In this document: positions 5,172-45,261 of the stretch, piece by piece
Layout: every line of letters begins with the position of its first letter
How positions within the stretch are numbered: the first letter of the stretch is position 1
Assembly: GCA_963665665.1 (NCBI GenBank)
Contig: OY762428.1
Location: 416,001-480,000 of the forward strand
Direction: 5' to 3'
Origin: Candidatus Kapaibacterium sp.
GTDB lineage: Bacteria > Bacteroidota > Ignavibacteria > Kapaibacteriales > UBA2268
DNA: 64,000 nt
The notes under the pieces: model-generated
Told to the model about the DNA's origin: nothing
What the model saw: the letters and a program-made list of their open reading frames with translations, nothing else
Databases searched by the model: none
Translations under genes and position numbers: made by a program

Positions 5172-5197
5172 AATAATTTAACATTTTTGCATTTACT

Positions 5198-5230
5198 AAT
5201 AATCCGGCGGCTTCGTTCCGCCGGATTATT
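5198..5230. terminator. Bidirectional intrinsic terminator between convergent genes
   Basis: AATAATCCGGCGG-cttcgtt-CCGCCGGATTATT, a perfect 13-bp stem. Confidence 0.8.
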
Positions 5231-5292
5231 TATTTCCTGATAAAGATGGAAATATTAGCAATGTGTTTTTTTGAATGAAAGGCCACTTGTAT

Positions 5293-7073: not shown

Positions 7074-7224
7074 TTAAATCACCGGTTTATCCAAATCCAA
7101 TTTTTACATTTTATCGTTTATTCCGCCTGTTTATTGTCTGAAACGGGCGCAGTTACAAATTTAATCAGATTGTGATTATTAAAAAAATAATTGGCGCAAG
7201 GTGTGATTGGATTTATTCTAAATA

Positions 7225-7254
7225 GCTGCCCCGTTTTACCGGGACAGCATTTTA
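7225..7254 (-). terminator. Hairpin terminator after the 7289 gene
   Basis: GCTGCCCCG-tttta-CCGGGACAGC stem flanked by A/T runs. Confidence 0.55.
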
Positions 7255-7288
7255 TTTATCGATTCTCAATATCAGCGAACATTTAATA

Positions 7289-10954: not shown

Positions 10955-11406
10955 AATAATCCCTGAAATATTATTTGAGAATTGTGATAGCAAAAAAATT
11001 CAGATTTCAAAAATATTTGAATAAAAATACTCTTGCATTTATCATTATACAACAAATTAAAATATTCTATCTGCTATATTCTATTTAGCAATAAACAATT
11101 CCAAGCTCAACTTAGGAAATAATTTGAATATTTCATAATAATTTATATAGAATAAAATAATAATTCAATTGAATATTTATCAAACCATGTTAGCTAAGTG
11201 TATCGTAAATTTTATTTTTTTCCTATAGAAGATGATTTGTTTTTATTCTTAAAATATCAATTTGAAGTTCTTGCCTTTTTCAACAAATTTTTGTATCTCC
11301 GATTTAAGAAATTTTATTTACTGAATACATCTAATTTGCCTTGCTTTTAAGCAAATAAATATATAAATTTTAAAGATTTTTGGATTATCAATATCCGGGG
11401 ATAAAA

Positions 11407-27529: not shown

Positions 27530-27548
27530 CAATAAAATTTTGTATGCG

Positions 27549-27575
27549 AAACCGGGCAAATGTCCGGTTTTTTTT
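27549..27575. terminator. Bidirectional terminator
   Basis: AAACCGGGCA-aa-TGTCCGGTTT plus a T-run, between convergent genes. Confidence 0.65.
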
Positions 27576-28530
27576 ATATACATATTTTGATAATAGTATA
27601 ATCATCGTCAATGCAATTATCAGCAGATTTATCTATCAGGAAATTATACAATTTCTTCAATTCAGATGATTCATCATCAATATTATCCTTCAGAAATTCA
27701 ATCATTTCACTAATTTCAAACATCTCACCTGATTTCTTTTCAATTTCGTATGCTCCGTCGGTGTAAATATACAGGGTCATTCCGGGATCGAGGACTTTTG
27801 ATTCGGCAACATAGCCCCAATTTGGCATTGGCCCTATCATTGCATTCTGAGATTTCAACTGAACTGATTCATGTCCGTTCAGAATTATGATGGGAGGATG
27901 GCCTGCTCCGCAATAAGAAAGTTTTCTTTTACCTTTATTGTAAACACAATACCACATCGTAAAAAACATATTATTATGATCGGACATTTGAAAAGCGTTA
28001 TTAAGCGAAAAAACAACATCTTCAGGGTCAGTAAAATCCACTCCCGGAAGGTTTTGAAATTTAATTGTATTTATTACTGATACTGAATATAAGGCCGGAC
28101 CAACACCGTGACCGCAAACATCAATAATATAGATTGCAAGGTTGTCATCATCAATCTCATGATAACCGTAAATATCACCCCCAAGTTTATCCGAAGGAAT
28201 AAATTCACCGCAAATTTTCAATTCATCGTCAAGTTTTTCAGGAAGGAGCGAGCGTATATACTCTGCTGCATGAGTAAGCTGCTCATCAATAATATCATAC
28301 TTTTCTTTCAGTTCCGCACGGGTATCAAAAAGGTCTTTCTGGGTTTTATCACTTATTACAAGTAATTTTTTCATCTGTTTGAACTGTCGCTTATATTCCC
28401 GCGCAAGAACTTCAAACTCTGAAAACATCGGATTATCTGAATTAGCCCAATCGTTGATTACGGAATCAATCCTGGATATAATTCTGTTCTCTTTTCTAAA
28501 ACTATTTTTATTATCTGAACTTTTTTCCAT
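27574..28530 (-). CDS. PP2C/SpoIIE-family phosphatase with SiaD-like N-terminal helical region
   Basis: GGDIY, DVCGHG, GAGHP, YTDG, DDYT motifs; N-terminal NP..L..Y...KLLVISD.Q helix. Confidence 0.85.
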   Translation of the reverse strand: MEKSSDNKNSFRKENRIISRIDSVINDWANSDNPMFSEFEVLAREYKRQFKQMKKLLVISDKTQKDLFDTRAELKEKYDIIDEQLTHAAEYIRSLLPEKLDDELKICGEFIPSDKLGGDIYGYHEIDDDNLAIYIIDVCGHGVGPALYSVSVINTIKFQNLPGVDFTDPEDVVFSLNNAFQMSDHNNMFFTMWYCVYNKGKRKLSYCGAGHPPIIILNGHESVQLKSQNAMIGPMPNWGYVAESKVLDPGMTLYIYTDGAYEIEKKSGEMFEISEMIEFLKDNIDDESSELKKLYNFLIDKSADNCIDDDYTIIKICI

Positions 28531-28548
28531 TATTTTTCTATATCCGGA

Positions 28549-28926
28549 TTAATTCATTTCAATTATTTCAAAAGGTATATCCATATCTTCGGCAAATTCC
28601 TCACCGCTTTCGAATATACTTTCGTTACCGGATTTGTAATACCATTTTATTTGAATTTCACGCCCATTTAAAAAGCTGTCGTTCAAAATATCCATAATAT
28701 CCAAAAGTGCTTTTGATGAGGATGTATTGAAATAAACCAACTTGAAATTAAAAACAACTTTTTTCTCAGAATTTTTTAAATAATTTTCAACCCAATCAAT
28801 CACAGGATCGAAGAATTCCAAAGCATTTTCCGGATACGATGAACCTGCTAACAATAACTCGCCGGTCTCAAAGTTGAACTCAACCTCAGGCGAGGCTTTG
28901 TCTGCTTTAACAGTTAAATTTTTCAT
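28549..28926 (-). CDS. siaC: SiaC family (DUF1987) phosphoprotein
   Basis: GSSYPENA, YFNTSSSKAL (phospho-Thr motif), WYY, GEEFAED. Confidence 0.9.
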   Translation of the reverse strand: MKNLTVKADKASPEVEFNFETGELLLAGSSYPENALEFFDPVIDWVENYLKNSEKKVVFNFKLVYFNTSSSKALLDIMDILNDSFLNGREIQIKWYYKSGNESIFESGEEFAEDMDIPFEIIEMN

Positions 28927-28927
28927 C

Positions 28928-29491
28928 TCATTCTCCCTTTTTTATTTTTACAGTTAATTCCATAAATGTTGTTTCGGAATCAATGTCGTCAAAAGTATAT
29001 TCAATTCCATCAGTAGATTTACGTGCAATATCGATTAGCCCGAGGCCTGCTCCCTTTGAGTCATCCTCGCGGGGCATTCGGCGCTGTGTTTTATACATTT
29101 TTTTCAATTCCAGTTCATCTGATTTGTTTATCAGCTCAAGCCTGTCTGTAATTTCCTTTATTCTGGTTTTATCAATTTTATTTCCAGCAAGAATTGAGTA
29201 ATATTCCGGCTCCTCCATGAATAAAATTATCCCGACACCAAATTCGCGTCCTTCAATTTGTTCACGTTCGGCAGAATAGTTCATAATATTCTGCGCCATT
29301 TCCACAAAAACAGAAAAACAACGCCTTATTTTATCCGGAAAATCACTCGCGTGGTTATTTATCAGGTCTCCCATTTCAATTAATATTTCCTGGGATAGCG
29401 CACCCTTAAAAAGTAGCAGGATATTAAATTTATTTATTATCCTGTTATAGAATCCGAAAAGTTCGCCCCGTTTCATATCTTTTCCTGTCAT
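28928..29491 (-). CDS. siaB: SiaB family protein kinase (DUF6272)
   Basis: VFVEMAQNIMNYS and GAGLGLIDIARKS motifs; adjacent to siaC. Confidence 0.9.
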   Translation of the reverse strand: MTGKDMKRGELFGFYNRIINKFNILLLFKGALSQEILIEMGDLINNHASDFPDKIRRCFSVFVEMAQNIMNYSAEREQIEGREFGVGIILFMEEPEYYSILAGNKIDKTRIKEITDRLELINKSDELELKKMYKTQRRMPREDDSKGAGLGLIDIARKSTDGIEYTFDDIDSETTFMELTVKIKKGE

Positions 29492-29646
29492 TTTTGCAAA
29501 TCAATTTTTTGGGATTTTAATTAAATCAAAACCCTATATATATTTACAACAATAATGATGCCAACGCTCAATATTAAAAAAAATATCTTATTAATCGAAG
29601 TCTGCATCAAAAACTATTTCCATTTTTAACCTCTGCCTGTTTACAT

Positions 29647-31668
29647 TTATTCAGCAAGAGGACATGTAAACTTAAACGACGTTCCCTGCCCTGGTTGGCT
29701 TTCAACCCATATTTTACCGCCATTCTTCTCAACAAATTCCTTGCAAAGAATTAATCCCAGTCCGGTGCCTTTCTCGTTTTCAGTCCCGGGTTTGGAATAT
29801 TGCACATCAATCCTGAATAATTTGTCAATATCTTCCGCCGCTATTCCCACGCCGGTATCATTTATTTCAATAATTATTTTATTATTTTTTACTGAGGAAT
29901 TTAAAAATATCTTACCCCCCGAAGGAGTAAATTTAATTGCGTTTGATACAAGATTTCGAATAACTGTTGTAATCATATTTGAATCAATATTGGCAAATAA
30001 TTCACTTTCAAAATCGGTAATCAGTTCAATATTTTTCGAAGCTGCCGGGCCGGTCATTAAATTTTTATTATTTTCCAACAGATAGGCAAGGTTCGTTCTA
30101 TCAGGATTGTAATCTAACCTTCCGGTTTGTGATCGCGCCCAGTTCAATAGATTTTCAAGAAGTTCGTAGAGCTGCTTGGCAGATTGATTCATCAATGTCA
30201 GGAAATCAATTTTATCTTCTTTGGAAAGATCATCAAACTCTTTTATCAGCAGTCCGGATATTTGACGAAATGAACCAAGGGGATTTTTCAGGTCGTGGGC
30301 AATGATAGAAAAGAATTTATCCTTCGTTGCATTCAACTCTTTTAACTGCCCTTCTGATCTTGATATTTCCTGATTTTTCTCAGCCAGATCTTTATTCAAT
30401 GACTCAAGTTCAAGGAGTGCATCATTGATAATTTTATTTTTTGATTCAAGAACTACAGAATGGCGTTTTTTATTCCTATAAAAAATCATGATGACAACAA
30501 GAACAACAAAAACAAGAACCAACATAGCAGCAATAAAGTATGTAATTTTCTTTTGTAATGAATTCTCCTTTTTAAGATATTCAATTTCCTTTTCCTTAAG
30601 ATCGTTTTCACGTTGAGCTTCAAGATTAGCAATCTTAGTTTTGGTTTCACTATTGAACACAGAGTCCCTCAGGTCAACCTGCTTTTCAAAATATTTAAGT
30701 GAGTTTTCGAAATCACCTTTTGCTTTATATGCTTTGGAAAGGATTAATACATCCTGGTGATTGTTATACATCTCTCCAACTTTTTCATAATACTCAAGAG
30801 CTTGCAGAAGATATTTTATAGATTTATCGAGTAGTTGGGTTTTACTGAGTTTAAGACTTTGGCTTTTACCTTTCTGAAGATTAGTAATTGAGTCAAGGGT
30901 TTGTTTGTAATAAATATTACCGAGCCTTCCGTATGTAATTCCAATACCTCTGACATCATCATCTTTTTTATAAAAATCAATGGATTTTTGAAAATATTCT
31001 TCAGCTTTAATATAATTCATTTTTTCACTGAAAATTTCACCTATATTATGCATCGAATTCGCAATACCCTGATAATCTCTAAGTTCCTCTTTCTTTTTCA
31101 TCGATCTTTGAAACATAACCAAAGCACTGTCGTATTCCTTTTCCTGCCAATAAATTGCTCCGATATTGTTTATTGCATTAGCTATCCCTCTTACATCATT
31201 GATTTTTTCTTTTCGTGCAAGAGATTTTCTGAAATAGAGCAATGCCTTATCGTAATTTTGCAATTTCCAGTATATTGTACCAATATTGTTCAAAGCACTT
31301 GAAATACCTTTCTCATCGCCAATTTCCTCTTTTATTTTTAGTGATTTAATAAAATAATCCAGGGTTCTGTCAAAATCCGATTTAGTATAATAAGACAAAC
31401 CAATATTTAGTAGAGCTTTTGCTTCCCCGGGTTTCCAGTTCAAATCCCTCGCAAGTTTTAAAGCCTTATTTCCATATACAATACCCTTACCCGGATCCGT
31501 AGAATAATAGTGATAAGTTAATTGAACAAGTAGTGTAACTTTATTGGTATCTTCTTTCATTTTTGGCAATTCCAATAGCAGGGAATCAATCAATTCCTGG
31601 CCATGTTTTCTTGCCATTGTAGGAGTAAAAAGAACAAATATCAGTAAAAGAGTGAAAAACCTTCTCAT
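29647..31668 (-). CDS. TPR-ectodomain sensor histidine kinase
   Basis: Signal peptide, TPR repeats, TM, IAHDLKNP, NAIKFT, DTGVG, GTGLGL. Confidence 0.92.
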   Translation of the reverse strand: MRRFFTLLLIFVLFTPTMARKHGQELIDSLLLELPKMKEDTNKVTLLVQLTYHYYSTDPGKGIVYGNKALKLARDLNWKPGEAKALLNIGLSYYTKSDFDRTLDYFIKSLKIKEEIGDEKGISSALNNIGTIYWKLQNYDKALLYFRKSLARKEKINDVRGIANAINNIGAIYWQEKEYDSALVMFQRSMKKKEELRDYQGIANSMHNIGEIFSEKMNYIKAEEYFQKSIDFYKKDDDVRGIGITYGRLGNIYYKQTLDSITNLQKGKSQSLKLSKTQLLDKSIKYLLQALEYYEKVGEMYNNHQDVLILSKAYKAKGDFENSLKYFEKQVDLRDSVFNSETKTKIANLEAQRENDLKEKEIEYLKKENSLQKKITYFIAAMLVLVFVVLVVIMIFYRNKKRHSVVLESKNKIINDALLELESLNKDLAEKNQEISRSEGQLKELNATKDKFFSIIAHDLKNPLGSFRQISGLLIKEFDDLSKEDKIDFLTLMNQSAKQLYELLENLLNWARSQTGRLDYNPDRTNLAYLLENNKNLMTGPAASKNIELITDFESELFANIDSNMITTVIRNLVSNAIKFTPSGGKIFLNSSVKNNKIIIEINDTGVGIAAEDIDKLFRIDVQYSKPGTENEKGTGLGLILCKEFVEKNGGKIWVESQPGQGTSFKFTCPLAE

Positions 31669-31675
31669 TTAGCCC

Positions 31676-34156
31676 TCATATTTTTAAACCCATTACAGTT
31701 ATATCATCCCTGAACGGGATACCATTGGAGAATTTATTCAATTCCTCTGATAATATAATTCTTTTTTCATTAAAATCTATATCTCTTTCGAGTAATTCTT
31801 TTAATTTTTCTTTACCAAAGAATTCATCTTTTTCATTATTCTGATCTAATATCCCGTCGGAGAACATGAAAAGCCTTGTTTCGCTTTTTAATTCCAACGT
31901 TTGCTGTGTAAAAATTCTTTCTTTCCTTACCCTACCTCCAATACCAAATTTGTCACCCTTTATCTCTTCAATTTTCCCGTTCGTTGAATACCAAAGCGGA
32001 CGCCGTGCTCCTGCAAATACGAGTTCATCGCCTTTTATCCTTATTATTGAAAGCTCCATGCCGTCCTGCTGGCTGCCAATTTCATCCTTCTGGTGGAGGG
32101 CTTTCCTGACGAGTTCATTCAGCCTGGTTAGAATATCCCTCGGTTCAAAAATTTTATCAACCAGCACAATCTGGTTTAGCAGGTCGTAGCCGATTATCGA
32201 CATAAATGCGCCCGGTACACCATGGCCCGTGCAGTCAACAACAGCTACGAATGTATATCCCCCCGCCTGGTCCACCCAGTAGAAGTCACCGGATACAACA
32301 TCTTTGGGCTTATACAGAACAAAATGCTCCTTAAATATTTCATTCATTCTCTGGGGAAATGGCAGCATAGCTTTCTGAATTTTTTCCGCGTAGTTTATCG
32401 AGTCGGTAATTTTCAGGTGTGCCTCGGATATTGTATGATTCTTTTCAGCAAGATCGTTGTTCAATTCCTCCAGTTCTGTGTTTGCAAGGCTTATCTGCCG
32501 GTTTTTATCAGCCAGGTCATTATTCAGTGTTTCAAGTTCTATATTTGCTTCTTTGATCACCTTATTTTTTGCCGCCAGCCAGTGGTTGGATTTGCGTTTA
32601 TTTCGATAAAAAAGGAACATAACTACAAGGACAAAAAAGATAAGAGCTGACAGTGCATAAAGATAATAACTCCTGGACTGCTGATATTCATTTTCTTTTT
32701 CAAGTTTTTCTATCTCTTTTGCTTTAAGGTCATTTTCCCGTTTTGCTTCAAGATTGGCAATTTTTGTCAGGGTTTCCTCGTTGGAGATGGAATCCCTCAA
32801 TGATATATGTTCTTTATAAGCCTCCAATGCTTTCTGATAGTCTTCGATTCCTATGTAATAGTTGGATAATGCTCTAAGATTATGAGAAATGCCTTCAATA
32901 TTGTCAATCTCGCGTGATAGATCAATAGCCTTATTCGAATATTCAATTGCCTTCCGATTATTTAAAGTCTTATTTAAATTATTGGTTATACCCCGATCAT
33001 TTAATTTTTTAATTATTGAATCCTGAGATTTTTTAAAATACATACTTGCAATATTACCATACAAATATGCGATGTGCCTGCTATCATTGATTTCCTTGGC
33101 AATTTCAATCGACTTTTTATAATATTCATCAGCGATTTCGAATTCCAGCTCATCCGATGCTATCTGGGCAAGGTTATCAAGACTATGTGACATTGCAGTT
33201 TTTGCGCCTGTTTTCTCATATAGTTTCAAAGCGTCCATAAAATACTTTTTTGCCGAATCCATGTTTCCACGGTAATAATACACAGCTCCCAAATTATTTA
33301 AACATTGGGCTATCCCATTGGTAGAATTATTCTTATTAAAATTTTTCAATCCAATCTTGTAATGTTTCAGAGCTTTTGAAATATCATTCAATTCGATATA
33401 AATATTTCCGATATATAAATTAGAATTCCCTATCAATTCAGGGGCATCTATTTTCTCTGCGATAGACAAACCTTCCAGACAGTATTCAAGAGCTTTCGCA
33501 TGTTTGGATTGTCTGTACTTTGAAATCCCAATATTGCTTATAACTCTCACCATATTTATACTATCCTGTGCTTTTTTAAAATATTCCAATGCTTCAGAAT
33601 ATTGCTCAATTGATTTTTGAATTTGGTTTCTATTCGATGATGCTATTGCCAATCCGTTATATATCTTACCAAGTATTTTTGGATCCCTGTTGTATTCAAT
33701 ATTCTTCAGGGCTTGATCAAAATAATATTCAGAACTGTCGTAAATATTCTGACGGCCAAAACATATTCCAATATCACTAAAAATTATCGGGATCATATCT
33801 TCGGTATTCTTTTCCTTGGACAGGTTTAAGGTAATATTGTACAGGTTTATGGCATTTTCGAAATCAAAATTCTCTTCATAAACTGAAGCCATGGCACGGT
33901 TTGCCTTTACTATCCATTTATCGGAATTTATCTTTTCTGATAAGGAAATAGCCATTCTAATATTTTCCAAAGATTTATTCTTGTCTGACTTCATATAATA
34001 ATCAGATATACTTATCAACAGTTTTACTTTATTTGTATCTTCCTTCGCATTCGGTAATTCGGCAAGAAGAGAATCAATTTTATCCTGTCCCTGTTTTTTG
34101 GCAAAAGCAGGCGTTAACATTATTAATGCTAACAAAATGGCCAGTATGTTTTTCAT
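31676..34156 (-). CDS. TPR-TM-coiled-coil-PP2C (SpoIIE) receptor phosphatase, copy D
   Basis: Signal peptide, TPRs, TM, SINYA, VSGDFYW, DCTGHGVPGA, FSDG, DDIT. Confidence 0.92.
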   Translation of the reverse strand: MKNILAILLALIMLTPAFAKKQGQDKIDSLLAELPNAKEDTNKVKLLISISDYYMKSDKNKSLENIRMAISLSEKINSDKWIVKANRAMASVYEENFDFENAINLYNITLNLSKEKNTEDMIPIIFSDIGICFGRQNIYDSSEYYFDQALKNIEYNRDPKILGKIYNGLAIASSNRNQIQKSIEQYSEALEYFKKAQDSINMVRVISNIGISKYRQSKHAKALEYCLEGLSIAEKIDAPELIGNSNLYIGNIYIELNDISKALKHYKIGLKNFNKNNSTNGIAQCLNNLGAVYYYRGNMDSAKKYFMDALKLYEKTGAKTAMSHSLDNLAQIASDELEFEIADEYYKKSIEIAKEINDSRHIAYLYGNIASMYFKKSQDSIIKKLNDRGITNNLNKTLNNRKAIEYSNKAIDLSREIDNIEGISHNLRALSNYYIGIEDYQKALEAYKEHISLRDSISNEETLTKIANLEAKRENDLKAKEIEKLEKENEYQQSRSYYLYALSALIFFVLVVMFLFYRNKRKSNHWLAAKNKVIKEANIELETLNNDLADKNRQISLANTELEELNNDLAEKNHTISEAHLKITDSINYAEKIQKAMLPFPQRMNEIFKEHFVLYKPKDVVSGDFYWVDQAGGYTFVAVVDCTGHGVPGAFMSIIGYDLLNQIVLVDKIFEPRDILTRLNELVRKALHQKDEIGSQQDGMELSIIRIKGDELVFAGARRPLWYSTNGKIEEIKGDKFGIGGRVRKERIFTQQTLELKSETRLFMFSDGILDQNNEKDEFFGKEKLKELLERDIDFNEKRIILSEELNKFSNGIPFRDDITVMGLKI

Positions 34157-34165
34157 GTAAAACCC

Positions 34166-36406
34166 TTAAAGTTTTATTCCTAAAACAGTTATATCATCCC
34201 GAAGGCTTTCTTCTGATCTGAATTCAATAAACTCACTATTCAGGGTTTCGGAAACTGAACTTAATTGTTCACTGCTTGTAAAAATAGTCCTAAGACGTTC
34301 TTTACCAAAGAATTCCTCATTCTCATTATTCTGGTCGATAATTCCATCCGAGAACATGAAGAGTTTTGTATCCCTGTTCAATTTCAGGGATTGCTGAGTA
34401 AATACCCTTTCTTTGCGAACCCTGCCGCCAATTCCAAATTTGTCACCCTTTATCTCTTCAATTTTTCCATTCATGGAATACCACAAAGGCCTTCGTGCAC
34501 CTGCAAATATAAGCTCATCGCCTTTTATCCTGGTGATAGAAAGCTCCATGCCGTCCTGCTGGCTGCCTATTTCATCCTTCTGATGAAGGGCTTTTCGGAC
34601 AAGTTCATTCAGCCTGGTTAGAATGTCCCTCGGTTCATAAATTTTATCCACCAGCACAATCTGGTTAAGCAGGTCATAGCCGATGATTGACATGAATGCA
34701 CCTGGTACGCCATGACCGGTACAGTCAACAACAGCCACAAATGTGTACCCGCCGGACTGCTCCACCCAGTAGAAGTCCCCGGAGACAACATCCTTTGGTT
34801 TATAGATTACAAAATGTTCTTTGAACATCTCGTTCAATCTTTCCGGGAAAGGCAGCATAGCCTTCTGGATTTTTTCCGCGTAATTAATCGAATCAGTAAT
34901 TTTCTGATGTGCCTCGGATATTGTATGGTTCTTGTCGGCAAGGTCATTGTTCAATTCCTCCAGTTCGGTGTTTGCAAGGCTTATCTGCCTGTTCTTATCA
35001 GCCAGGTCATTATTGAGTGTTTCAAGTTCGGTGTTAGCTTCTTTGATCACCTTATTTTTGGCAGCAAGCCATTGATTGGATTTTCGTTTATTGCGGTAAA
35101 AGAAGAACATAACAACAAGAACAACAAAGATCAGGGCAGATAGTGCATAAAGGTAATTACTTTTTGACTCCTGATACTCCTTTTCTTTCTTCAGAATTTT
35201 AATTTCCTTTGCCTTCAACTCATTTTCTCTCTTAGCTTCCAGGTTTGCAATTTTTGTCTTTGTTTCCGATGAAGAAATTGAATCTTTTAGAATTATATGC
35301 TCCTTAAAGGCTTCAAGAGCTTTTTTGTATTCACCCTTTTCAGCAAAAACAATTGATAAATACTTAAGGTATATCTGGTAACCATCTATGTTGCCAATTT
35401 CTGAATTAATATTTGCGGCTTTTTCAAAATATTCTTTTGCTTTCTTTAAGTTATTTATTTTGTTAAAACTTATATTTAATTTTTTTCCATCAAGCTGACT
35501 AAGTACCGAGTCTTGCGTTAGATTGAAATAAACTGAACCAATATTACCGAGGGCGAATGCTATGCCATTTCTATTTCCCATTTCTTCAAAATATTTTAGA
35601 GATTTATGATGATACTCAAGTGATTTATCGTACTCTAATAAAGCACTATATGTTAGTCCGATATTTAAAAAATTTATTGCACTGCCTCTTATATCTCCGA
35701 TTTCCTCATCAAGCCTAAGAGATTTATTGTAGTATTCAAGAGCTTTTTTAAAGTTTCCTTGTTCGTGATAAGTAAGTCCAATATTACCAAGAACTCTGGC
35801 AATACCTTCTTTATTCCCGATTTCTTCATCAAGCTTTAGAGCTTTGAAATAATAATCAAGTGCTTTTTCATAATTTTTTTGCTGATCAAAAACATTTCCG
35901 ATATTCGAGTAAGTTGTTGATTGACCACGTTTATTTTCCATTTCTTCAAACATCTGTAGCACTTTAAAATAATATTCAAGTGCTTTGTCGAAATTGGATT
36001 GATTATCATATATGATTCCAATATTTCCAAGATTTTTTGCAATTTCTTGTTTATTCCCAATTTCTCTCAATATTTTTAGAGCTTTTAAAAAATTATCAAG
36101 TGCTATGTTGAAATTTGATAAAACAATATTGCATCTAGCTATTGAATTCAATGACTTAGCTTCACCTTCTTTCCAGTTCAATTCTTTTGATAGTGATAGA
36201 GCCATTTCTCCATATTCTAAACCTTTTTCAGGATTTACGAAATAGTAAGAAAGAGATAATTCATTCATAGTTTTCACCTTATTGGTATCCTCCTTCGCAT
36301 TCGGCAATTCAGCAAGAAGGGAATCGATTTTTTCCTGCCCCTGTTTCTGGGCAAAAGAGGGTGTTAGCATAATAAATGCCAGTATCAGAGGTAGCACCTT
36401 TTTCAT
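34166..36406 (-). CDS. TPR-TM-coiled-coil-PP2C receptor phosphatase, copy A
   Basis: Same architecture; likely ATG at 36406 after TAAGGATT. Confidence 0.92.
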   Translation of the reverse strand: MKKVLPLILAFIMLTPSFAQKQGQEKIDSLLAELPNAKEDTNKVKTMNELSLSYYFVNPEKGLEYGEMALSLSKELNWKEGEAKSLNSIARCNIVLSNFNIALDNFLKALKILREIGNKQEIAKNLGNIGIIYDNQSNFDKALEYYFKVLQMFEEMENKRGQSTTYSNIGNVFDQQKNYEKALDYYFKALKLDEEIGNKEGIARVLGNIGLTYHEQGNFKKALEYYNKSLRLDEEIGDIRGSAINFLNIGLTYSALLEYDKSLEYHHKSLKYFEEMGNRNGIAFALGNIGSVYFNLTQDSVLSQLDGKKLNISFNKINNLKKAKEYFEKAANINSEIGNIDGYQIYLKYLSIVFAEKGEYKKALEAFKEHIILKDSISSSETKTKIANLEAKRENELKAKEIKILKKEKEYQESKSNYLYALSALIFVVLVVMFFFYRNKRKSNQWLAAKNKVIKEANTELETLNNDLADKNRQISLANTELEELNNDLADKNHTISEAHQKITDSINYAEKIQKAMLPFPERLNEMFKEHFVIYKPKDVVSGDFYWVEQSGGYTFVAVVDCTGHGVPGAFMSIIGYDLLNQIVLVDKIYEPRDILTRLNELVRKALHQKDEIGSQQDGMELSITRIKGDELIFAGARRPLWYSMNGKIEEIKGDKFGIGGRVRKERVFTQQSLKLNRDTKLFMFSDGIIDQNNENEEFFGKERLRTIFTSSEQLSSVSETLNSEFIEFRSEESLRDDITVLGIKL

Positions 36407-39400
36407 AAACAATCCTTAAAGTTTAAATCCAAAAACAGTTATATCATCTCGGCGCTCGGTGTTGGCCGCGAATTCATCGAATTCCTCGTTCAGCTTAGCA
36501 GAAACAGATTGAAGTTCCATACTACTTTCCAGAATACCTTTCAGCCTCGCCTTGCCGAACAGATCATCTTTCTCATTATTCTGATCTATTATCCCGTCGG
36601 AGAACATGAAGAGCTTTGTTTCTCCTGTTAATTTCATGGATTGCTGGGTAAATACCCTTTCTTTGCGAACCCTGCCGCCTATTCCAAATTTATTGCCCTT
36701 GATTTCCTCAATCTTTCCATTCGTAGAATACCACAAAGGCCTTCGTGCCCCTGCAAATATAAGTTCATCGCCTTTTATCCTTATTATTGAAAGTTCCATG
36801 CCGTCCTGCTGACTGCCTATTTCATCCTTCTGATGAAGGGCTTTTCGGACAAGTTCATTCAGCCTGTAAAGTATATCTTTGGGTTCATAAACTTTATCCA
36901 CCAGTACTATCTGGTTTAGCAGGTCGTAGCCGATTATCGACATGAAGGCGCCGGGCACGCCATGGCCGGTACAATCAACCACAGCTGCAAATGTGAAACC
37001 ACCGGACTGCTCAACCCAGTAGAAGTCACCGGATACAACATCTTTGGGCTTATACAGAACAAAATGCTCTTTAAATATTTCATTCATTCTCTCAGGAAAT
37101 GGCAGCATTGCCATCTGAATTTTTTCGGCATAATTAATTGAATCAGTGATTTTCTGGTGAGCCTCGGAAATAGTGTGGTTCTTTTCGGCAAGGTCATTGT
37201 TCAATTCCTCCAGTTCTGTGTTGGCAAGGCTTATCTGCCGATTCTTATCAGCCAGGTCATTATTCAGTGTTTCAAGTTCTATATTTGCTTCTTTGATCAC
37301 CTTATTTTTTGCCGCCAGCCAGTGGTTGGATTTGCGTTTATTTCGATAAAAAAGGAACATAACTACAAGGACAACAAAGATCAGGGCAGATAGTGCATAA
37401 AGGTAATTACTTTTTGACTCCTGATACTCCTTTTCTTTCTTCAGAATTTTAATTTCCTTTGCCTTCAACTCATTTTCTCTCTTAGCTTCCAGGTTTGCAA
37501 TTTTTGTCTTTGTTTCCGATGAAGAAATTGAATCTTTTAGAATTATATGCTCCTTAAAGGCTTCAAGAGCTTTTTTGTATTCACCCTTTTCAGCAAAAAC
37601 AATTGATAAATACTTAAGGTATATCTGGTAACCATCTATGTTGCCAATTTCTGAATTAATATTTGCGGCTTTTTCAAAATATTCTTTTGCTTTCTTTAAG
37701 TTATTTATTTTGTTAAAACTTATATTTAATTTTTTTCCATCAAGCTGACTAAGTACCGAGTCTTGCGTTAGATTGAAATAAACTGAACCAATATTACCGA
37801 GGGCGAATGCTATGCCATTTCTATTTCCCATTTCTTCAAAATATTTTAGAGATTTATGATGATACTCAAGTGATTTATCGTACTCTAATAAAGCACTATA
37901 TGTTAGTCCGATATTTAAAAAATTTATTGCACTGCCTCTTATATCTCCGATTTCCTCATCAAGCCTAAGAGATTTATTGTAGTATTCAAGAGCTTTTTTA
38001 AAGTTTCCTTGTTCGTGATAAGTAAGTCCAATATTACCAAGAACTCTGGCAATACCTTCTTTATTCCCGATTTCTTCATCAAGCTTTAGAGCTTTGAAAT
38101 AATAATCAAGTGCTTTTTCATAATTTTTTTGCTGATCAAAAACATTTCCGATATTCGAGTAAGTTGTTGATTGACCACGTTTATTTTCCATTTCTTCAAA
38201 CATCTGTAGCACTTTAAAATAATATTCAAGTGCTTTGTCGAAATTGGATTGATTATCATATATGATTCCAATATTTCCAAGATTTTTTGCAATTTCTTGT
38301 TTATTCCCAATTTCTCTCAATATTTTTAGAGCTTTTAAAAAATTATCAAGTGCTATGTTGAAATTTGATAAAACAATATTGCATCTAGCTATTGAATTCA
38401 ATGACTTAGCTTCACCTTCTTTCCAGTTCAATTCTTTTGATAGTGATAGAGCCATTTCTCCATATTCTAAACCTTTTTCAGGATTTACGAAATAGTAAGA
38501 AAGAGATAATTCATTCATAGTTTTCACCTTATTGGTATCCTCCTTCGCATTCGGCAATTCAGCAAGAAGGGAATCGATTTTTTCCTGCCCCTGTTTCTGG
38601 GCAAAAGAGGGTGTTAGCATAATAAATGCCAGTATCAGAGGTAGCACCTTTTTCATAAACAATCCTTAAAGTTTAAATCCAAAAACAGTTATATCATCTC
38701 GGCGCTCGGTGTTGGCCGCAAATTCATCGAATTCCTCGTTCAGCTTAGCAGAAACAGATTGAAGTTCCATACTACTTTCCAGAATACCTTTCAGCCTCGC
38801 CTTGCCGAACAGATCATCTTTTTCATTATTCTGATCTATTATCCCGTCGGAGAACATGAAGAGCTTTGTTTCTCCTGTTAATTTCATGGATTGCTGGGTA
38901 AATACCCTTTCTTTGCGAACCCTGCCGCCTATTCCAAATTTATTGCCCTTGATTTCCTCAATCTTTCCATTCGTAGAATACCACAAAGGCCTTCGTGCCC
39001 CGGCAAATACAAGTTCATCGCCTTTTATCCTTATTATTGAAAGTTCCATGCCGTCCTGCTGACTGCCTATTTCATCCTTCTGATGAAGGGCTTTTCGGAC
39101 AAGTTCATTCAGCCTGTAAAGTATATCCCTCGGTTCAAAAATTTTATCAACCAGTACTATCTGGTTTAGCAGGTCGTAGCCGATTATCGACATGAAGGCG
39201 CCGGGCACGCCATGGCCGGTACAATCAACCACAGCTGCAAATGTGAAACCACCGGACTGCTCAACCCAGTAGAAGTCACCGGATACAACATCTTTGGGCT
39301 TATACAGAACAAAATGCTCTTTAAATATTTCATTCATTCTCTCAGGAAATGGCAGCATTGCCATCTGAATTTTTTCGGCATAATTAATTGAATCGGTTAT

Positions 39401-39620
39401 CTTCTGGTGTGCCTCGGATATAGTATGGTTCTTGTCGGCAAGGTCATTGTTCAATTCCTCCAGTTCGGTGTTTGCAAGGCTTATCTGCCTGTTCTTATCA
39501 GCCAGGTCATTATTCAGTGTTTCCAGTTCAATATTTGCTTCTTTGATAACCTTATTTTTGGCAGCAAGCCATCGATTGGATTTGCGCTTGTTGCGATAAA
39601 AAAGGAACATAACTACAAGG
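35121..39620. repeat. Direct tandem duplication with 2250-bp period
   Basis: 35121-37370 matches 37371-39620; it appears identical over the TPR part and near-identical over the PP2C part. Confidence 0.9.
36416..38656 (-). CDS. TPR-TM-coiled-coil-PP2C receptor phosphatase, copy B (chimeric)
   Basis: Ectodomain protein sequence is identical to copy A; phosphatase domain is nearly identical to copy C. Confidence 0.9.
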   Translation of the reverse strand: MKKVLPLILAFIMLTPSFAQKQGQEKIDSLLAELPNAKEDTNKVKTMNELSLSYYFVNPEKGLEYGEMALSLSKELNWKEGEAKSLNSIARCNIVLSNFNIALDNFLKALKILREIGNKQEIAKNLGNIGIIYDNQSNFDKALEYYFKVLQMFEEMENKRGQSTTYSNIGNVFDQQKNYEKALDYYFKALKLDEEIGNKEGIARVLGNIGLTYHEQGNFKKALEYYNKSLRLDEEIGDIRGSAINFLNIGLTYSALLEYDKSLEYHHKSLKYFEEMGNRNGIAFALGNIGSVYFNLTQDSVLSQLDGKKLNISFNKINNLKKAKEYFEKAANINSEIGNIDGYQIYLKYLSIVFAEKGEYKKALEAFKEHIILKDSISSSETKTKIANLEAKRENELKAKEIKILKKEKEYQESKSNYLYALSALIFVVLVVMFLFYRNKRKSNHWLAAKNKVIKEANIELETLNNDLADKNRQISLANTELEELNNDLAEKNHTISEAHQKITDSINYAEKIQMAMLPFPERMNEIFKEHFVLYKPKDVVSGDFYWVEQSGGFTFAAVVDCTGHGVPGAFMSIIGYDLLNQIVLVDKVYEPKDILYRLNELVRKALHQKDEIGSQQDGMELSIIRIKGDELIFAGARRPLWYSTNGKIEEIKGNKFGIGGRVRKERVFTQQSMKLTGETKLFMFSDGIIDQNNEKDDLFGKARLKGILESSMELQSVSAKLNEEFDEFAANTERRDDITVFGFKL

Positions 39621-41146
39621 ACAACAAAGATAAGAGCTGACAGTGCATAAAGATAATAACTCCTGGATTGCTGATATTCATTTTCTTTTTCAAGTCTTTC
39701 TATCTCTTTTGCTTTAAGTTCATTTTCCCGTTTAGCTTCAAGGTTTGCAATTTTTGTCTGTGTTTCCTCGTTAAAAATAGAATCTTTAATTGTGATATGT
39801 TTTTTATATGTTTCAAGGGCTTTTTGATACTTATCATTTGCTGCATACGCATCTGAAAGTAATTTAGAATATGTTTTGGTATTTAATAAATCTCCGACTT
39901 TGATAAATAATGCAACAGATTTCTCTAAGTAATCAATTGCTTTTAATAAATAATTTTTTCGCGTATTGGATGAAATATTTTGATATTCTTTTCTTTCCAT
40001 ATTAATGGAATCCTGTGAGATAGAATAATATGCTAATCCTAATGAACCTAATGATACTGCCATATCATTTTCACTATTATATGATTCTGCCAAATGAAGA
40101 GATTTTTCCAATAACTCTATTGCTTTATAATAATTTTCCTTTTTAATATGTACAATTCCCATATTTTCATAAGCCACAAGTAAAGCATTGTTATCATTGA
40201 TTTCTAATGCCACTTCCAATAGGTTTTTAAAACTCTCCATTGCTTCATCATAATTTAATTTCTCTAAATTAATTAGCCCAATACTATTTAAAATATATGC
40301 TTCATTTTGAACATTGCCCATTTTCCTTGTTATTGGCAGAGCATGTTCAAAATACTCAAGCGCTTTAGCATTGTCATTCTTGTTTTTATAAATAATACCA
40401 ATACTGAGATCTGCTAAAACAACACCATCTAAGTCATCAATTTCTTCAAACACTTTCATGGCCTTATGAAAATAATCAATAGCTTCGTCAAAATCTGATT
40501 TGGCATCATATATTTGACCGATATTCAAAAAAATAGTGGATATGATTTGTTTATCATTCAAACTTTTGCCGATTTTGAGAGATTTCTTGTACAATTTCAT
40601 AGCTTCGTCAAATTTGTTCTGATCCTTATACACATTTGCTAAGTTAACTGATGATATTGCCAACCCTCTTTCATCACCCAATATCTTCTTCATTTCAATT
40701 GACTTTTTTGAATATTTTATTGCTTTGTCAAAATTGGATATGTTATAATAAAGCATAGACATATTGCCGTATAGTTGTGCCTTCCACCAGGTATTATCAG
40801 TCGTTTTTGCTATTTTCAAGGCCTTATCAAAATATTCAGTCGCCATATCATATTTTGATAAGAATAAATAATTAGTTGCAATAGCATTCAAGGCTCCGAT
40901 TATACCACTCTTCCATCCGATATCTTTTGCCAACTTTAACGATTTCTTACCGAACTCAATCCCCTTATCCGGATCGCTAACATTATATGCAAGAGAAATC
41001 ACAGCCAAAGTTCGAACTTTGTTTGTATCAAGTTTCATATCCGGCAATTCAGCAAGAAGGGAATCGATTTTTTCCTGCCCCTGTTTCTGGGCAAAAGAAG
41101 GTGTAAGCATAATAAATGCCAGTATCAGAGGTAGTATCTTCTTCAT
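38666..41146 (-). CDS. TPR-TM-coiled-coil-PP2C receptor phosphatase, copy C
   Basis: Same architecture with a distinct, longer TPR ectodomain. Confidence 0.92.
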   Translation of the reverse strand: MKKILPLILAFIMLTPSFAQKQGQEKIDSLLAELPDMKLDTNKVRTLAVISLAYNVSDPDKGIEFGKKSLKLAKDIGWKSGIIGALNAIATNYLFLSKYDMATEYFDKALKIAKTTDNTWWKAQLYGNMSMLYYNISNFDKAIKYSKKSIEMKKILGDERGLAISSVNLANVYKDQNKFDEAMKLYKKSLKIGKSLNDKQIISTIFLNIGQIYDAKSDFDEAIDYFHKAMKVFEEIDDLDGVVLADLSIGIIYKNKNDNAKALEYFEHALPITRKMGNVQNEAYILNSIGLINLEKLNYDEAMESFKNLLEVALEINDNNALLVAYENMGIVHIKKENYYKAIELLEKSLHLAESYNSENDMAVSLGSLGLAYYSISQDSINMERKEYQNISSNTRKNYLLKAIDYLEKSVALFIKVGDLLNTKTYSKLLSDAYAANDKYQKALETYKKHITIKDSIFNEETQTKIANLEAKRENELKAKEIERLEKENEYQQSRSYYLYALSALIFVVLVVMFLFYRNKRKSNRWLAAKNKVIKEANIELETLNNDLADKNRQISLANTELEELNNDLADKNHTISEAHQKITDSINYAEKIQMAMLPFPERMNEIFKEHFVLYKPKDVVSGDFYWVEQSGGFTFAAVVDCTGHGVPGAFMSIIGYDLLNQIVLVDKIFEPRDILYRLNELVRKALHQKDEIGSQQDGMELSIIRIKGDELVFAGARRPLWYSTNGKIEEIKGNKFGIGGRVRKERVFTQQSMKLTGETKLFMFSDGIIDQNNEKDDLFGKARLKGILESSMELQSVSAKLNEEFDEFAANTERRDDITVFGFKL

Positions 41147-41293
41147 GAATAATCCTTAATATTTAAACAGTTATTAAATGGCTGTTTACCCGGATCAGCA
41201 TATTGTATTTGGCGTTAAGTCTAATTCCCTGCATAAGTTTATTTAAAATAGTTATTTTTTACCGAATAACCAATTTATTATTGGATTGAAATT

Positions 41294-41326
41294 AAAAAAG
41301 CCCGGAGAGTTTTCACTTTCCGGACT
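41294..41326 (-). terminator. Terminator after the minus-strand pgk homolog
   Basis: AAAAAAGCCCGGAGAG...CTTTCCGGACT hairpin with a U-tract on the minus strand. Confidence 0.55.
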
Positions 41327-41352
41327 ATATATAAAAAATAATATTCTAATGG

Positions 41353-42669
41353 TCAATGCAGTTTTTTGAAATTCCTTATAAGCGACTGCACCGGCTCAAG
41401 GCCATAGGGAGAATTCTCCTGGATTGCTTTAAGCACCGCTCCGCCACCTGTAAAAATACAATATTTCGGACTGTCAAGGGCAACGATATACAGGCCGGGA
41501 AGAAGTTTCTTCAATTCCTGGAGAGTATCCCCGCCTCCGTACATTTTTGTTGCCGCTTTATTATCATCAATAAGCTGATCCATGGCTACCGTTCCCTGTG
41601 TAAAATGGGGAACATAGCCCATAACGGCATTCACAAATATTGTCCGCGCCCCGAGAAATACATCCTTAACAGCCGGAAGTTCAAATGATTCAGCTCCAAT
41701 ATCCAGAACATAGTTCAGTTTCGTTCCTTCAGGCAGTTCATGAATATTATGAACCCTGTACTGGCCGTCTATCCTGCCATCCATTGTATCGGATTCGATA
41801 ATATAAGGTAGATCTACCATTTTGTGTTCGTATTTCTTCGAGAACTCCACGAATTCCTTCGCATGTGCAAGGTCATCATCACTGATGCCGTTTATTTTAA
41901 AACCGTACTTTGCGGAAAGATATGCATTATATATTACGCCTCCGAGAACAAGGTGGTCAGATTTTTCGAGCAATGCTTTTAGTGAACCTATCTTTGTATC
42001 GAATTTTGCACCTGCCACAACAGCAACAAACGGCCTTTCAGGATTCAGAACTCTTGTCAGGTTGGAAATCTCTTTCTGCATCAGAAGTCCTGCATAATCC
42101 GGCAGATGCTCACCAACCCCAACCGTTGATGCATGAGGCTGCCACGAGCCGAAAGCATCGTTAACATAAACATCCGCCAGCCCGGCAAGCTGGTAGGCAA
42201 AACGCTGTCCGAGTTCTCCTTCAGTTTCCTCGCCATAGAACCACCGGGTGTTCGGTAAATATATTCCGTCTATCTGTCCCTCCTTGAGATCACGTATCAT
42301 GTGGTTGATAGATGTTTCGATTCCCATGTATCCGAAATTTCCATTAACATGAAAATCAGGTACTTTCAGAGTAATCGACATTTTATTCTGAAGATAATCA
42401 ACTATCGGCTGAACGGATGTATGATCGGATATTTCAATATCTCCGGTTTTCTTGTTTCTCGGCCTGCCCACGTGAGACATCAGAATTAGTTTCCCGCCCT
42501 TTGCAACAATGTGGAACAAGGTTGGCAGAGTGGCATCTATCCTGTAAGGATCATGTATTTCTCCCTTTTTTACTACATTGTGGTCAACCCTTACAAGAAC
42601 AACTTTGTCCTTGAGATCAGCGTCCTGAAGACGGGGAATTTCAGGATTGTAAAGCATAATTTCTCCCAT
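41353..42669 (-). CDS. pgk: Phosphoglycerate kinase homolog (divergent)
   Basis: VRVDHNV, SHVGRP, PNTRW, VNDAFG, GAKFDTKI, GGGDT, FTGGGA. Confidence 0.8.
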   Translation of the reverse strand: MGEIMLYNPEIPRLQDADLKDKVVLVRVDHNVVKKGEIHDPYRIDATLPTLFHIVAKGGKLILMSHVGRPRNKKTGDIEISDHTSVQPIVDYLQNKMSITLKVPDFHVNGNFGYMGIETSINHMIRDLKEGQIDGIYLPNTRWFYGEETEGELGQRFAYQLAGLADVYVNDAFGSWQPHASTVGVGEHLPDYAGLLMQKEISNLTRVLNPERPFVAVVAGAKFDTKIGSLKALLEKSDHLVLGGVIYNAYLSAKYGFKINGISDDDLAHAKEFVEFSKKYEHKMVDLPYIIESDTMDGRIDGQYRVHNIHELPEGTKLNYVLDIGAESFELPAVKDVFLGARTIFVNAVMGYVPHFTQGTVAMDQLIDDNKAATKMYGGGDTLQELKKLLPGLYIVALDSPKYCIFTGGGAVLKAIQENSPYGLEPVQSLIRNFKKLH

Positions 42670-42869: not shown

Positions 42870-43889
<1,020 letters not shown>

Positions 43890-44067: not shown

Positions 44068-45261
44068 ATGTTACATTCAATGGATGATGTAAACTTTAAA
44101 TTCAAACATGTTTTGGTCAGGGTTGACTTCAATGTCCCCCTTGATTCTAAACAAAATATTACCGACGACATGAGGATAATTGAATCCCTGCCAACAATAG
44201 ACCAGATAATCGACGATGGCGGAATACCGATCGTTCTTTCACACCTTGGAAGGCCTAAAGGCAAGATAAACAGCAAATATTCTCTTGACACAGTTGCCCA
44301 CTACCTTCAGAAAAAATTCGGCTATGATGTGATATTCTCGCAGGACTGCAGGGGAAACAAACCACAAAGAGCCGTAAACAATGCAAAGCCGGGCGACATC
44401 GTTCTTCTTGAAAACCTTCGATTCTATGAAGGAGAAACAGCTAATGATCCGGAATTTGCAGCTGAACTGGCAGAACTTGGTGATGCCTATGTAAACGATG
44501 CTTTCGGTACTGTCCATCGCGCTCATGCCAGTATCCATGCTTTGCCAAAACTATTCCCCGGAAAATCCTATGCGGGTAAATCGCTTGTTTACGAGATCGA
44601 ATACCTTAATAACGCACTTACCGAACCGAGAAGCCCGTATATCGCAGTTATTGGCGGGGCCAAGATATCAGGCAAAATTGAAGTTATTCGGTCATTGATC
44701 AATCAGTGCGATACCGTTATCATTGGCGGCGGTATGATGTTCAATTTCCTGAAAGCTAAAGGATATAATATAGGCCGCTCGATATTCGAGGAAGATAAAA
44801 TCGAACTTGCAGCAGACCTGATTAAATTTGCCGAAAAAAAAGGCGTTAAACTTTTATTGCCGGAAGATGTTGTTGTAGCTGACAGGTTCTCTGATGATTC
44901 TGACAGGAATGACGTTCCTTCCGACAAAATCCCATCCGACTGGATAGGAATGGATATTGGTCCGAAAACTCAGGAATTATACAGGAAAGAAATACTCGGG
45001 GCTAAAACAATTGTTTGGAACGGCCCTATGGGAGTATTTGAAATGCCGAGATTTGCTCGCGGTACCAGGGCTGTTGCAAACTCGCTTGCTAATGTTACCG
45101 CTAAAGGGGCTACAACAATTCTTGGCGGAGGCGATTCGGCAGCAGCTATGAGCCAAATGCACCTTATCAACAAAGTAACTCATGTTACTCCGGGCGGCGG
45201 AGCATGGCTTAAATATATGGAAGGCGGAGAACTTCCGGGGATATCATCGCTTGTTATATAG
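44068..45261 (+). CDS. pgk: Phosphoglycerate kinase
   Basis: [48 protein letters not shown]. Confidence 0.93.

Follow-up and report, generated by a model that had tools for sequence, protein, structure and literature searches.

A cluster of eight co-oriented genes resembling the SiaABCD switch of Pseudomonas aeruginosa is described here from Candidatus Kapaibacterium sp. (assembly GCA_963665665.1), on a 64,000-nucleotide stretch of contig OY762428.1 (positions 416,001 to 480,000), which is termed the window and from whose first letter all coordinates are counted. The cluster lies on the minus strand at 27574-41146, and its gene content as listed in an initial annotation made from the letters alone was borne out by the open reading frame (ORF) list and by Pfam. 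It opens with four receptor phosphatases of the PP2C family, named R1 (38666-41146, 826 aa), R2 (36416-38662, 748 aa from a TTG start), R3 (34166-36412, 748 or 746 aa) and R4 (31676-34156, 826 aa), and continues with a TPR-bearing transmembrane histidine kinase (HK; 29647-31668, 673 aa), a spacer of 155 nt (29492-29646), a SiaB-family protein kinase (siaB; 28928-29491, 187 aa), a SiaC-family phosphoprotein (siaC; 28549-28926, 125 aa) and a soluble PP2C, hereafter PP2C8 (27574-28530, 318 aa). A PP2C, a HATPase-type Ser/Thr kinase and a STAS-like phosphoprotein, which are the component types of partner switching, are thus all encoded in the cluster, and the nearest relatives of its proteins are found in Kapaibacterium-type Bacteroidota. 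The profile searches proposed at the outset matched SiaB/DUF6272, the SiaC family (PF09345), SpoIIE and TPR as named.

The four receptors and HK share the same architecture up to the membrane. Each carries an N-terminal leader (MKK..LTPSFA|Q, a signal peptide as read by eye) and one internal hydrophobic segment (residues 498-516 in R1 and R4, 420-438 in R2 and R3, and 378-396 in HK), which is directly followed by the basic stretch YRNKRKSN, and these three elements together suggest that the TPR part is periplasmic and the enzyme part cytoplasmic. Pfam assigns TPR_12 to R1-R4 (E 1.5e-49 to 2.6e-34) and, at the C-terminus, SpoIIE (E 8e-18 to 4.8e-21), the latter domain being preceded by a coiled coil. 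The metal-binding motifs GDFY, VDCxGHGVPGA, DGxxDQ and RDDIT of the PP2C domain are kept, as illustrated by R1 with SGDFY at 622, VDCTGHG at 640, SDGI at 766 and RDDIT at 816. The assignment of the four receptor outputs as SiaA-type enzymes withstood scrutiny, since a PDB search with the R1 module returns nothing at E<=1e-3 other than the PP2C domain of SiaA (6k4e; 115 bits, E 3e-32). The C-terminal ~300 residues of R1-R4 score 171-184 bits with the SiaA model NF038263, the match covering only positions ~355-658 of 658, which is the C-terminal half, and the cut-off of 700 is not reached. The peptide or protein ligands that had been suggested for the TPR domains are pure conjecture.

The identity of siaB and siaC was likewise upheld, with 159.4 bits to NF038262 (cut-off 85) for the former and 147.4 bits to PF09345 (cut-off 24.5) for the latter. 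SiaB also matches DUF6272 at 131.8 bits and the solved SiaB 6kko_A at 71 bits, and it keeps the Glu of the IEM/VEM motif (E64), while its score with the equivalog model NF038264 is 109.9 bits against a cut-off of 225. SiaC, whose gene is separated from siaB by 1 nt, aligns with P. aeruginosa SiaC (6kko_C) at 105 bits and reaches 134.2 bits against a cut-off of 150 with its equivalog model NF038265. The phosphorylatable Thr68 is present (codon 28723-28725) and is shared without exception by the 48 aligned homologues. Counted from the alignment, 8 of the 14 residues that contact SiaD (contact list from PMC8457831) are kept, including Y31, Y65, N67, T68, S69, D79, E110 and D114. SiaC is described as STAS-like in the relevant part of 10.1101/674879. 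For SiaA, SiaB, SiaC and SiaD alike the scores stay below the NCBIfam equivalog cut-offs, so that the cluster proteins are to be regarded as family members and not as orthologue-grade counterparts.

The last gene is where the cluster departs from the first interpretation, in which the soluble PP2C had been counted as one more input to SiaC. PP2C8 is probably an output rather than a fifth input, because its catalytic domain belongs to a different clade, its gene occupies the siaD slot 18 nt downstream of siaC, and its N-terminus forms a SiaD-like stalk suited to SiaC docking. As far as the catalytic domain is concerned (SpoIIE as the only Pfam match, 127.8 bits; motifs GGD at 117, DVCGHG at 137, TDG at 257 and DDD at 308), PP2C8 obtains 37 bits with the SiaA model versus 171-184 bits for the receptors. 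Related proteins are PP2Cs that are linked to REC, PAS, FHA and GAF domains and annotated as RsbU-like, and a PP2C8-family profile finds RssB (3eq2) as the best PDB match at 88 bits, with SiaA at 49 bits. In a quick tree of 44 PP2C domains, R1-R4 group with all 11 siaB-adjacent PP2Cs entered from other genomes and with 7 others, whereas PP2C8 falls with stalk-, REC- and PAS-PP2Cs in a second group, the split having an SH-aLRT support of 100.

The stalk comprises residues 1-82 of PP2C8 (28285-28530, minus strand) and contains an F11..E14 motif followed by Y46..ISDKTQ, the latter six residues being 59-64 (28339-28356). The NCBIfam model of SiaD aligns by its N-terminal end with residues 19-79 (E 1.2e-4, 21.5 bits). 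Over residues 36-112, 73% of the a/d positions of a single heptad register are hydrophobic, versus 40% overall. A block of the form F..E...L and then Y..LL.Q..KL..I(S/G)D..Q..L is common to proteins encoded just downstream of siaC elsewhere, whichever enzyme domain they carry. A hidden Markov model (HMM) was built from 10 PP2C8-family N-termini, none of which came from the 80 SiaC loci described below, and was applied at E<0.01. It matched 19 of the 1130 ORFs in those loci, and all 19 lie on the siaC strand at +1 to +3 downstream; 6 of them are GAF-class III cyclases, 3 are histidine kinases, 1 is a GGDEF protein and 9 are small proteins with a C-terminal hydrophobic segment (stalk-TM proteins, TM standing for transmembrane). 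Within the window, six-frame translation yields PP2C8 as the only match to the stalk.

Structural counterparts of the stalk point in the same direction. Against the whole PDB, the stalk profile retrieves SiaD (7e6g_A) at the top (E 5e-6), and after removal of GGDEF-linked sequences SiaD is still the top match (E 3e-4; next 0.15). The alignment covers SiaD residues 60-102 with the segment KVARISDRYQ, and places I59-S60-D61-K62-T63-Q64 of PP2C8 opposite I81-S82-D83-R84-Y85-Q86 of SiaD, so that the binding motif K77-D91 of SiaD, with its S82 and Q86, has a counterpart in K55..I59 S60 D61 K62 T63 Q64..D69. According to the portions of PMC8457831 that deal with the complex, T68 of SiaC inserts between two SiaD stalk helices and bonds with S82 and Q86, and phosphorylation of T68 prevents SiaC from binding SiaD. 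The protein P0372 (315 aa) is a natural fusion whose single chain comprises a SiaC domain, a docking stalk (SVSDRLQ) and a transmembrane segment.

The stalk recurs in many other proteins. In a search of the stalk profile against 1.84 billion representatives, 1103 representative clusters were obtained at E<=0.001, of which 302 reach E<=1e-10. The match lies almost always at the extreme N-terminus, and the word [ILVM][SGAT]D..[QH] occurs in 132 of the best 150 matches. Among these 150, the 59 proteins of at least 230 aa were subjected to a domain scan, which gave 30 histidine kinases, 9 GGDEF proteins, 6 class III cyclases, 5 SpoIIE/PP2C proteins, 3 Hanks-type kinases, 1 protein with GAF only, the SiaC::stalk fusion and 4 proteins with no Pfam match; the remaining 91 fall below 230 aa, and a hydrophobic segment past residue 85 is present in 64 of these. 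Stalk-PP2Cs are accordingly a minority class, and they appear at no fewer than two places in the PP2C tree. No Pfam family covers the stalk in the scans of window, locus and best-match proteins.

The neighbourhood survey covered the best 80 of 590 SiaC relatives, with a best SiaC identity of 53%. Of the 80 loci, 77 yielded a siaC ORF, and 69 of these 77 have a siaB homologue. An SiaA-type PP2C (>100 bits to the R1 module) lies within the retrieved DNA of 12 of the 80, as one gene each (split in L074), and where it occurs near siaBC it sits directly upstream on the same strand, as in the window. It is found upstream in 9 of the 16 stalk-bearing loci, which means that input and output genes co-occur. 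The sensors attached to these enzymes include 7TMR-DISM, PK-AAA16-GAF, PAS/GAF and Reg_prop/Y_Y_Y, and the signal peptide-TPR-TM architecture is seen in none of the 11 that were scanned (the twelfth, L020_7, was outside the scan). Linkage of TPR-PP2C arrays to siaBC, whose absence in relatives was to count against the original proposal, was found in none of the 80 loci. By count from the match table, TPR families occur in 55 of the best 120 matches to the receptor output module; the combination of TPR and SiaA-type PP2C is an ordinary receptor type, and the four-gene array beside siaBC is unseen elsewhere in this limited sample. As a further peculiarity of these loci, some Bacteroidota possess two tandem siaB genes (L019 8452-10375, L034, and L004 8294-10399), and in L019 and L034 two siaB-siaC pairs are followed by two small stalk-TM proteins.

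The same survey bears on the model first advanced for the cluster, according to which all five PP2Cs are parallel inputs to SiaC, and its effector, a diguanylate cyclase or another protein, is encoded elsewhere. The PP2C motifs are intact in all five, and of the 77 loci in which a siaC ORF was called, 58 lack a stalk gene downstream, so remote SiaC targets must be common. Against this arrangement, which is considered quite unlikely, the tree puts PP2C8 in another clade than all the siaB-adjacent SiaA-type enzymes, its score with the SiaA model is the low value given above, and both its SiaD-like stalk and its position would be left unexplained. A diguanylate cyclase as the controlled output finds no place in the window, where no GGDEF domain was detected in any ORF scanned and the siaD slot is taken by a PP2C.

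The interpretation that is favoured, with somewhat better than even confidence, is a SiaABC-type relay with four-receptor input and a phosphatase output, in which SiaC docks on the stalk of PP2C8 and the HK stands apart. By homology with P. aeruginosa SiaA, SiaB and SiaC, SiaB would phosphorylate SiaC at Thr68, and the PP2C domains of the four inner-membrane TPR receptors would remove the phosphate. Unphosphorylated SiaC would then dock on the N-terminal coiled-coil stalk of PP2C8, as suggested by the SiaD-like motif, the gene order and the natural fusion, and this docking may stabilise a PP2C8 dimer and switch the phosphatase on, by analogy with the accounts of SiaC-SiaD in PMC8457831 and of RsbT-RsbU in PMC12143880, as far as those sources describe them. 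Active PP2C8 would finally dephosphorylate a target encoded outside the window. The receptor array at the head of the relay would consist of three old, constrained paralogues and one recent chimera that arose through unequal crossover.

Several observations weigh against this relay. A full-length profile restricted to the PP2C8 family reaches SiaD at E 0.13, amid coiled-coil noise, and phmmer run on the PDB with the PP2C8 N-terminus as a single sequence does not return SiaD, giving chance-level coiled-coil and ribosomal matches, so that the link between PP2C8 and SiaD rests on intermediate sequences and on the 21.5-bit NCBIfam match. PP2C8 contains one ISDxxQ motif versus two in SiaD, and is identical at only 6 of 13 SiaD contact residues. 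A stalk-PP2C was found downstream of siaC in none of the 80 related loci, and the linkage of PP2C8 homologues to SiaC or SiaA-type homologues consists only of equal-sized contigs in three pairs (P0003/P0122, 12557; P0018/P0130, 2264; P0002/P0197, 22508). Given the gap of 155 nt, the receptors and siaBC may form either one transcript or two. Docking of SiaC on PP2C8 and the ensuing activation are predictions from sequence.

A positive-feedback circuit was weighed as another possibility, in which SiaC docks on the stalk and SiaC~P itself is the substrate of PP2C8. A small amount of free SiaC would then set off full dephosphorylation, giving a bistable switch, and the true output would lie elsewhere. 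RsbU-type PP2Cs act on STAS proteins. SiaC~P is the sole phosphoprotein substrate implied by the cluster, and SiaC is STAS-like (10.1101/674879, in the part cited above). Furthermore, neither another candidate substrate nor a STAS, anti-sigma or receiver gene was found among the window ORFs scanned. Such a circuit is nevertheless deemed unlikely, given that other stalk proteins bear obvious output domains (cyclase, histidine kinase, GGDEF), that the stalk binds the product form of SiaC, and that the SiaA-type receptors already provide SiaC phosphatase activity.

The intergenic gaps from R1 to PP2C8 are 3, 3, 9, 7, 155, 1 and 18 nt in order, the fifth of which had been omitted from the initial annotation. 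For R2 and R3, the ATG two codons past the TTG is the more likely start (at 38656 in R2, giving 746 aa), because the database form P0193 has 746 aa, and with these starts the gaps among the receptor genes become 9, 9, 9 and 7 nt. It had also been claimed that each receptor stop codon is embedded in the ribosome-binding site of the next gene. The letters are as reported, the stops lying within TAAGGATT, TAAGGGTT and TGAGGG, and the claim is a fair description of them; the ribosome-binding role stays putative. An identical TAAGGATT also precedes R1, although no gene ends there, and a Shine-Dalgarno-like word lies upstream of only 15 of the 36 window genes.

Two separate neighbours might also be imagined, namely a receptor/HK operon with another substrate and a self-contained siaB-siaC-PP2C8 unit with its input elsewhere. 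The 155-nt gap before siaB would suit such a separation, as would the abundance of SiaA-type modules (of 8000 candidates scored, at least 7675 proteins reach E<=1e-10) and the presence of an SiaA-type PP2C nearby in only 12 of the 80 SiaC loci. It is judged very unlikely, since those SiaA-type PP2Cs that do lie near siaBC are placed as in the window, no terminator-like site was found in the 155-nt spacer by the terminator scan, and the receptor unit of helix plus PP2C is closely SiaA-like. The spacer may harbour an internal promoter; the promoter scans gave no usable signal there. Over the whole window, the scans gave 12 terminator sites versus 8.9 +/- 2.9 in shuffles and 68 sigma-70-like promoters versus 56.2 +/- 6.1, neither being informative for operon structure. 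The word TAnnTTTG, which we take to be the Bacteroidota -7 motif consensus, has 58 matches versus 77 expected, with none on the coding strand in the 155-nt spacer or in the 206-nt region upstream of R1 (41147-41352). Rfam reports a single tRNA in the window and no match within the cluster. Between the convergent PP2C8 and LTD genes lies a GC-rich hairpin (27548-27571), which is likely to be the end of the unit.

The HK had been counted among the five receptors. Its output is of the two-component kind, and nothing connects it to SiaC. Leader, juxtamembrane module and transmembrane segment are the same as in the receptors, and Pfam identifies TPR_12 followed by HisKA and HATPase_c. The FimS model gives 260 bits for HK and 94-123 bits for the receptors, all under the 600-bit cut-off. 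HK would rather be a paralogous sensor that feeds a separate response regulator; no Response_reg or receiver domain occurs in any ORF scanned within the window. In the closest SiaC relative (L002, Kapaibacterium, 53%), a 322-aa stalk-histidine kinase is encoded downstream of siaC at 10393-11361. The kinase core of HK is 44% identical to that of this protein, and HK may descend from a SiaC-controlled kinase that exchanged its stalk for a TPR-TM sensor.

The receptor array itself bears the marks of recombination. The ectodomains had been described as three unrelated types, of which the number was retained (type 1 in R1, type 2 in R3, type 3 in R4) and the unrelatedness was not, because the pairs other than R2-R3 are 26-37% identical, with 26-35% for the cores between types, and hence diverged TPR arrays of common origin. 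There are three types rather than four because R2 is a recent chimera of R3, R4 and R1. Its ectodomain core is identical to that of R3 (311 of 311 residues); nucleotides 1-1292 are identical to R3, sites 1293-1480 mostly match R4, and from about 1545 the sequence matches R1, the cytoplasmic modules of R1 and R2 being 98% identical with a synonymous divergence (dS) of 0.15. A tandem direct repeat with a 2250-nt period (35121-39394; 35121-37144 versus 37371-39394), in which 1349 nt are exactly identical between the copies, matches the trace expected from a single unequal crossover within the PP2C-coding sequences of R1 and R3, plus a small conversion patch. An assembly artefact behind the identity of R2 and R3 was considered and is unlikely, as the copies differ past nucleotide 1292 and artefacts usually collapse repeats.

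By comparison, R1, R3 and R4 are old paralogues under functional constraint. Over the 930-nt output module, they show a dS of 0.9-1.2, at which synonymous sites are saturated, and a ratio of nonsynonymous to synonymous divergence (dN/dS) of about 0.1, and the receptor output modules are 82-86% identical, with R1-R2 at 98%. Constrained outputs beneath freely diverged sensors argue for a shared substrate, not for which one, and fit receptor outputs that would act on a common substrate. Because a conserved 5' leader and a conserved 3' output module surround the variable TPR core, ectodomain shuffling would be possible. On another contig, P0191 is a copy of R4 with 2 residue differences, and on the same contig lies P0194, whose cytoplasmic part is 90% identical to that of R3 and which has no leader and a TPR region only 22-30% identical to any window receptor. 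The occurrence of a near-identical R4 beside a protein with a different TPR region suggests that ectodomain cores are exchanged between strains.

Two further observations concern the receptor family. The coiled-coil linker of R1-R4 contains a 21-residue repeat of three heptads (R1 ~537-578, window ~39413-39538; ELETLNNDLADKNRQISLANT / ELEELNNDLADKNHTISEAHQ), which is present once in HK and P0195 and about two and a half times in P0194, so that linker length varies by whole multiples of the heptad; Tandem Repeats Finder missed both this 63-nt repeat and the 2250-nt period, the latter being above its 500-nt limit. In addition, P0223, P0273 and P0281 join a DUF6272 (SiaB-family) domain, a receiver and an SiaA-type PP2C in a single chain, which would put switch kinase and phosphatase on one polypeptide under two-component control.

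The remainder of the window is of a different character. The genes flanking the cluster are housekeeping ones, namely a divergent PGK, GAPDH, PGK and IspF. Two PGK genes flank GAPDH (41353-42669, minus; 42897-43889, plus; 44068-45261, plus), the one directly upstream of the receptor array being divergent (438 aa, 284 bits) and the other canonical (397 aa, 493 bits). At 46197-48617 and 49469-51844, both on the minus strand, lie two paralogues in tandem that combine BNR/Sortilin repeats with type IX secretion tails, each having the same upstream leader TAATATAATTCCAAGAGGAAAAA and then an ORF of ~195 aa with no Pfam match; such tails occur on several window proteins. An ORF of at least 1596 aa (59211-63998, plus) runs past the window end, with a higher G+C (0.42-0.48) and a strong AT skew, and an RNB protein of the RNase II/R family (15469-17814, minus) bears two C-terminal double-stranded-RNA-binding motifs, which is an unusual pairing.

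SiaABCD has so far been known as a Pseudomonas biofilm module with one output, c-di-GMP, and the docking helix, known until now from one Pseudomonas biofilm enzyme, looks portable among many signalling enzymes. In the open-access literature and bioRxiv, Sia work was found for P. aeruginosa SiaABCD only, with no SiaC homologue that has a non-GGDEF partner and with SiaD as the only SiaC partner described. A broader proposition, to which slightly less than even confidence is given, is that SiaC, rather than a dedicated activator of cyclases, is a general phospho-switch adaptor for an ~80-residue stalk mounted on at least six kinds of output, and that the present cluster embodies a phosphatase-to-phosphatase relay fed by tandem TPR receptors, with ectodomain cores that strains swap through recombination in the conserved flanks. 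The six kinds, proposed with the same reserve, would be histidine kinases, GGDEF cyclases, class III cyclases, PP2Cs, Hanks-type kinases and small membrane proteins, and the relay would run from an SiaA-type PP2C through SiaC to an RsbU-type PP2C, possibly in a self-reinforcing manner. If the stalk is read correctly, one short motif would predict which enzyme a SiaC-family switch controls, and many SiaB/SiaC pairs that are now orphans could be given partners; such pairs are very common in Bacteroidota and occur in Leptospira as well. It would moreover furnish a second example of a partner-activated PPM phosphatase, independent of RsbT/RsbU, and a tractable setting in which several sensors that share one conserved output meet at a single phosphoprotein.

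Among known systems, FimS of Porphyromonas gingivalis and the TPR kinases of Bacteroidota share with the window proteins the succession of leader, periplasmic TPR, transmembrane segment and cytoplasmic output, and differ in that four of the five window proteins end in a PP2C instead of a kinase. The Leptospira loci L008, L044 and L074 (L. interrogans, 4064-11861) encode a PK-AAA16-GAF-SpoIIE protein, SiaB, SiaC and a stalk-GAF-adenylate/guanylate cyclase, and thus display the same four-part order with an SiaA-type PP2C upstream and a stalk effector downstream of siaC; there, in contrast, the sensor phosphatase is cytoplasmic and single-copy (two ORFs in L074), and the output is a class III cyclase. 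In the pertinent section of a transposon study (PMC5100919), lic12324 is given the domains PK, AAA_16, GAF and SpoIIE, and the mutant in the GAF-cyclase lic12327 was attenuated; from domain lists and gene numbers we infer that lic12324-lic12327 is the same Leptospira cluster.

The RsbT-RsbU pair of Bacillus subtilis resembles the proposed output step in its soluble RsbU/RssB-type PP2C with a helical N-terminal extension, switched on, as is proposed here, by a small partner. As presented in parts of PMC12143880, RsbU is activated by a partner that binds its N-terminal domain and coiled-coil linker, and the authors make the case that modules of this kind can be exchanged among PPM, histidine kinase and GGDEF enzymes. 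The partner would here be the STAS-like phosphoprotein SiaC, whereas RsbT is a kinase, and the sequence of the N-terminal module of PP2C8 is not related to that of the RsbU N-domain, which none of the searches returned as a match. The closest parallel is SiaABCD of P. aeruginosa. The two systems differ in having four receptor phosphatases here versus one there, in a periplasmic TPR array instead of the N-terminal sensor of SiaA, in an effector whose catalytic domain is a PP2C instead of GGDEF and which has one docking motif versus two, and in the additional TPR histidine kinase. They have in common the order phosphatase-kinase-SiaC-effector, an SiaA-type PP2C with its preceding helix, a SiaB-family kinase, Thr68 of SiaC and an effector stalk with the ISDxxQ motif.

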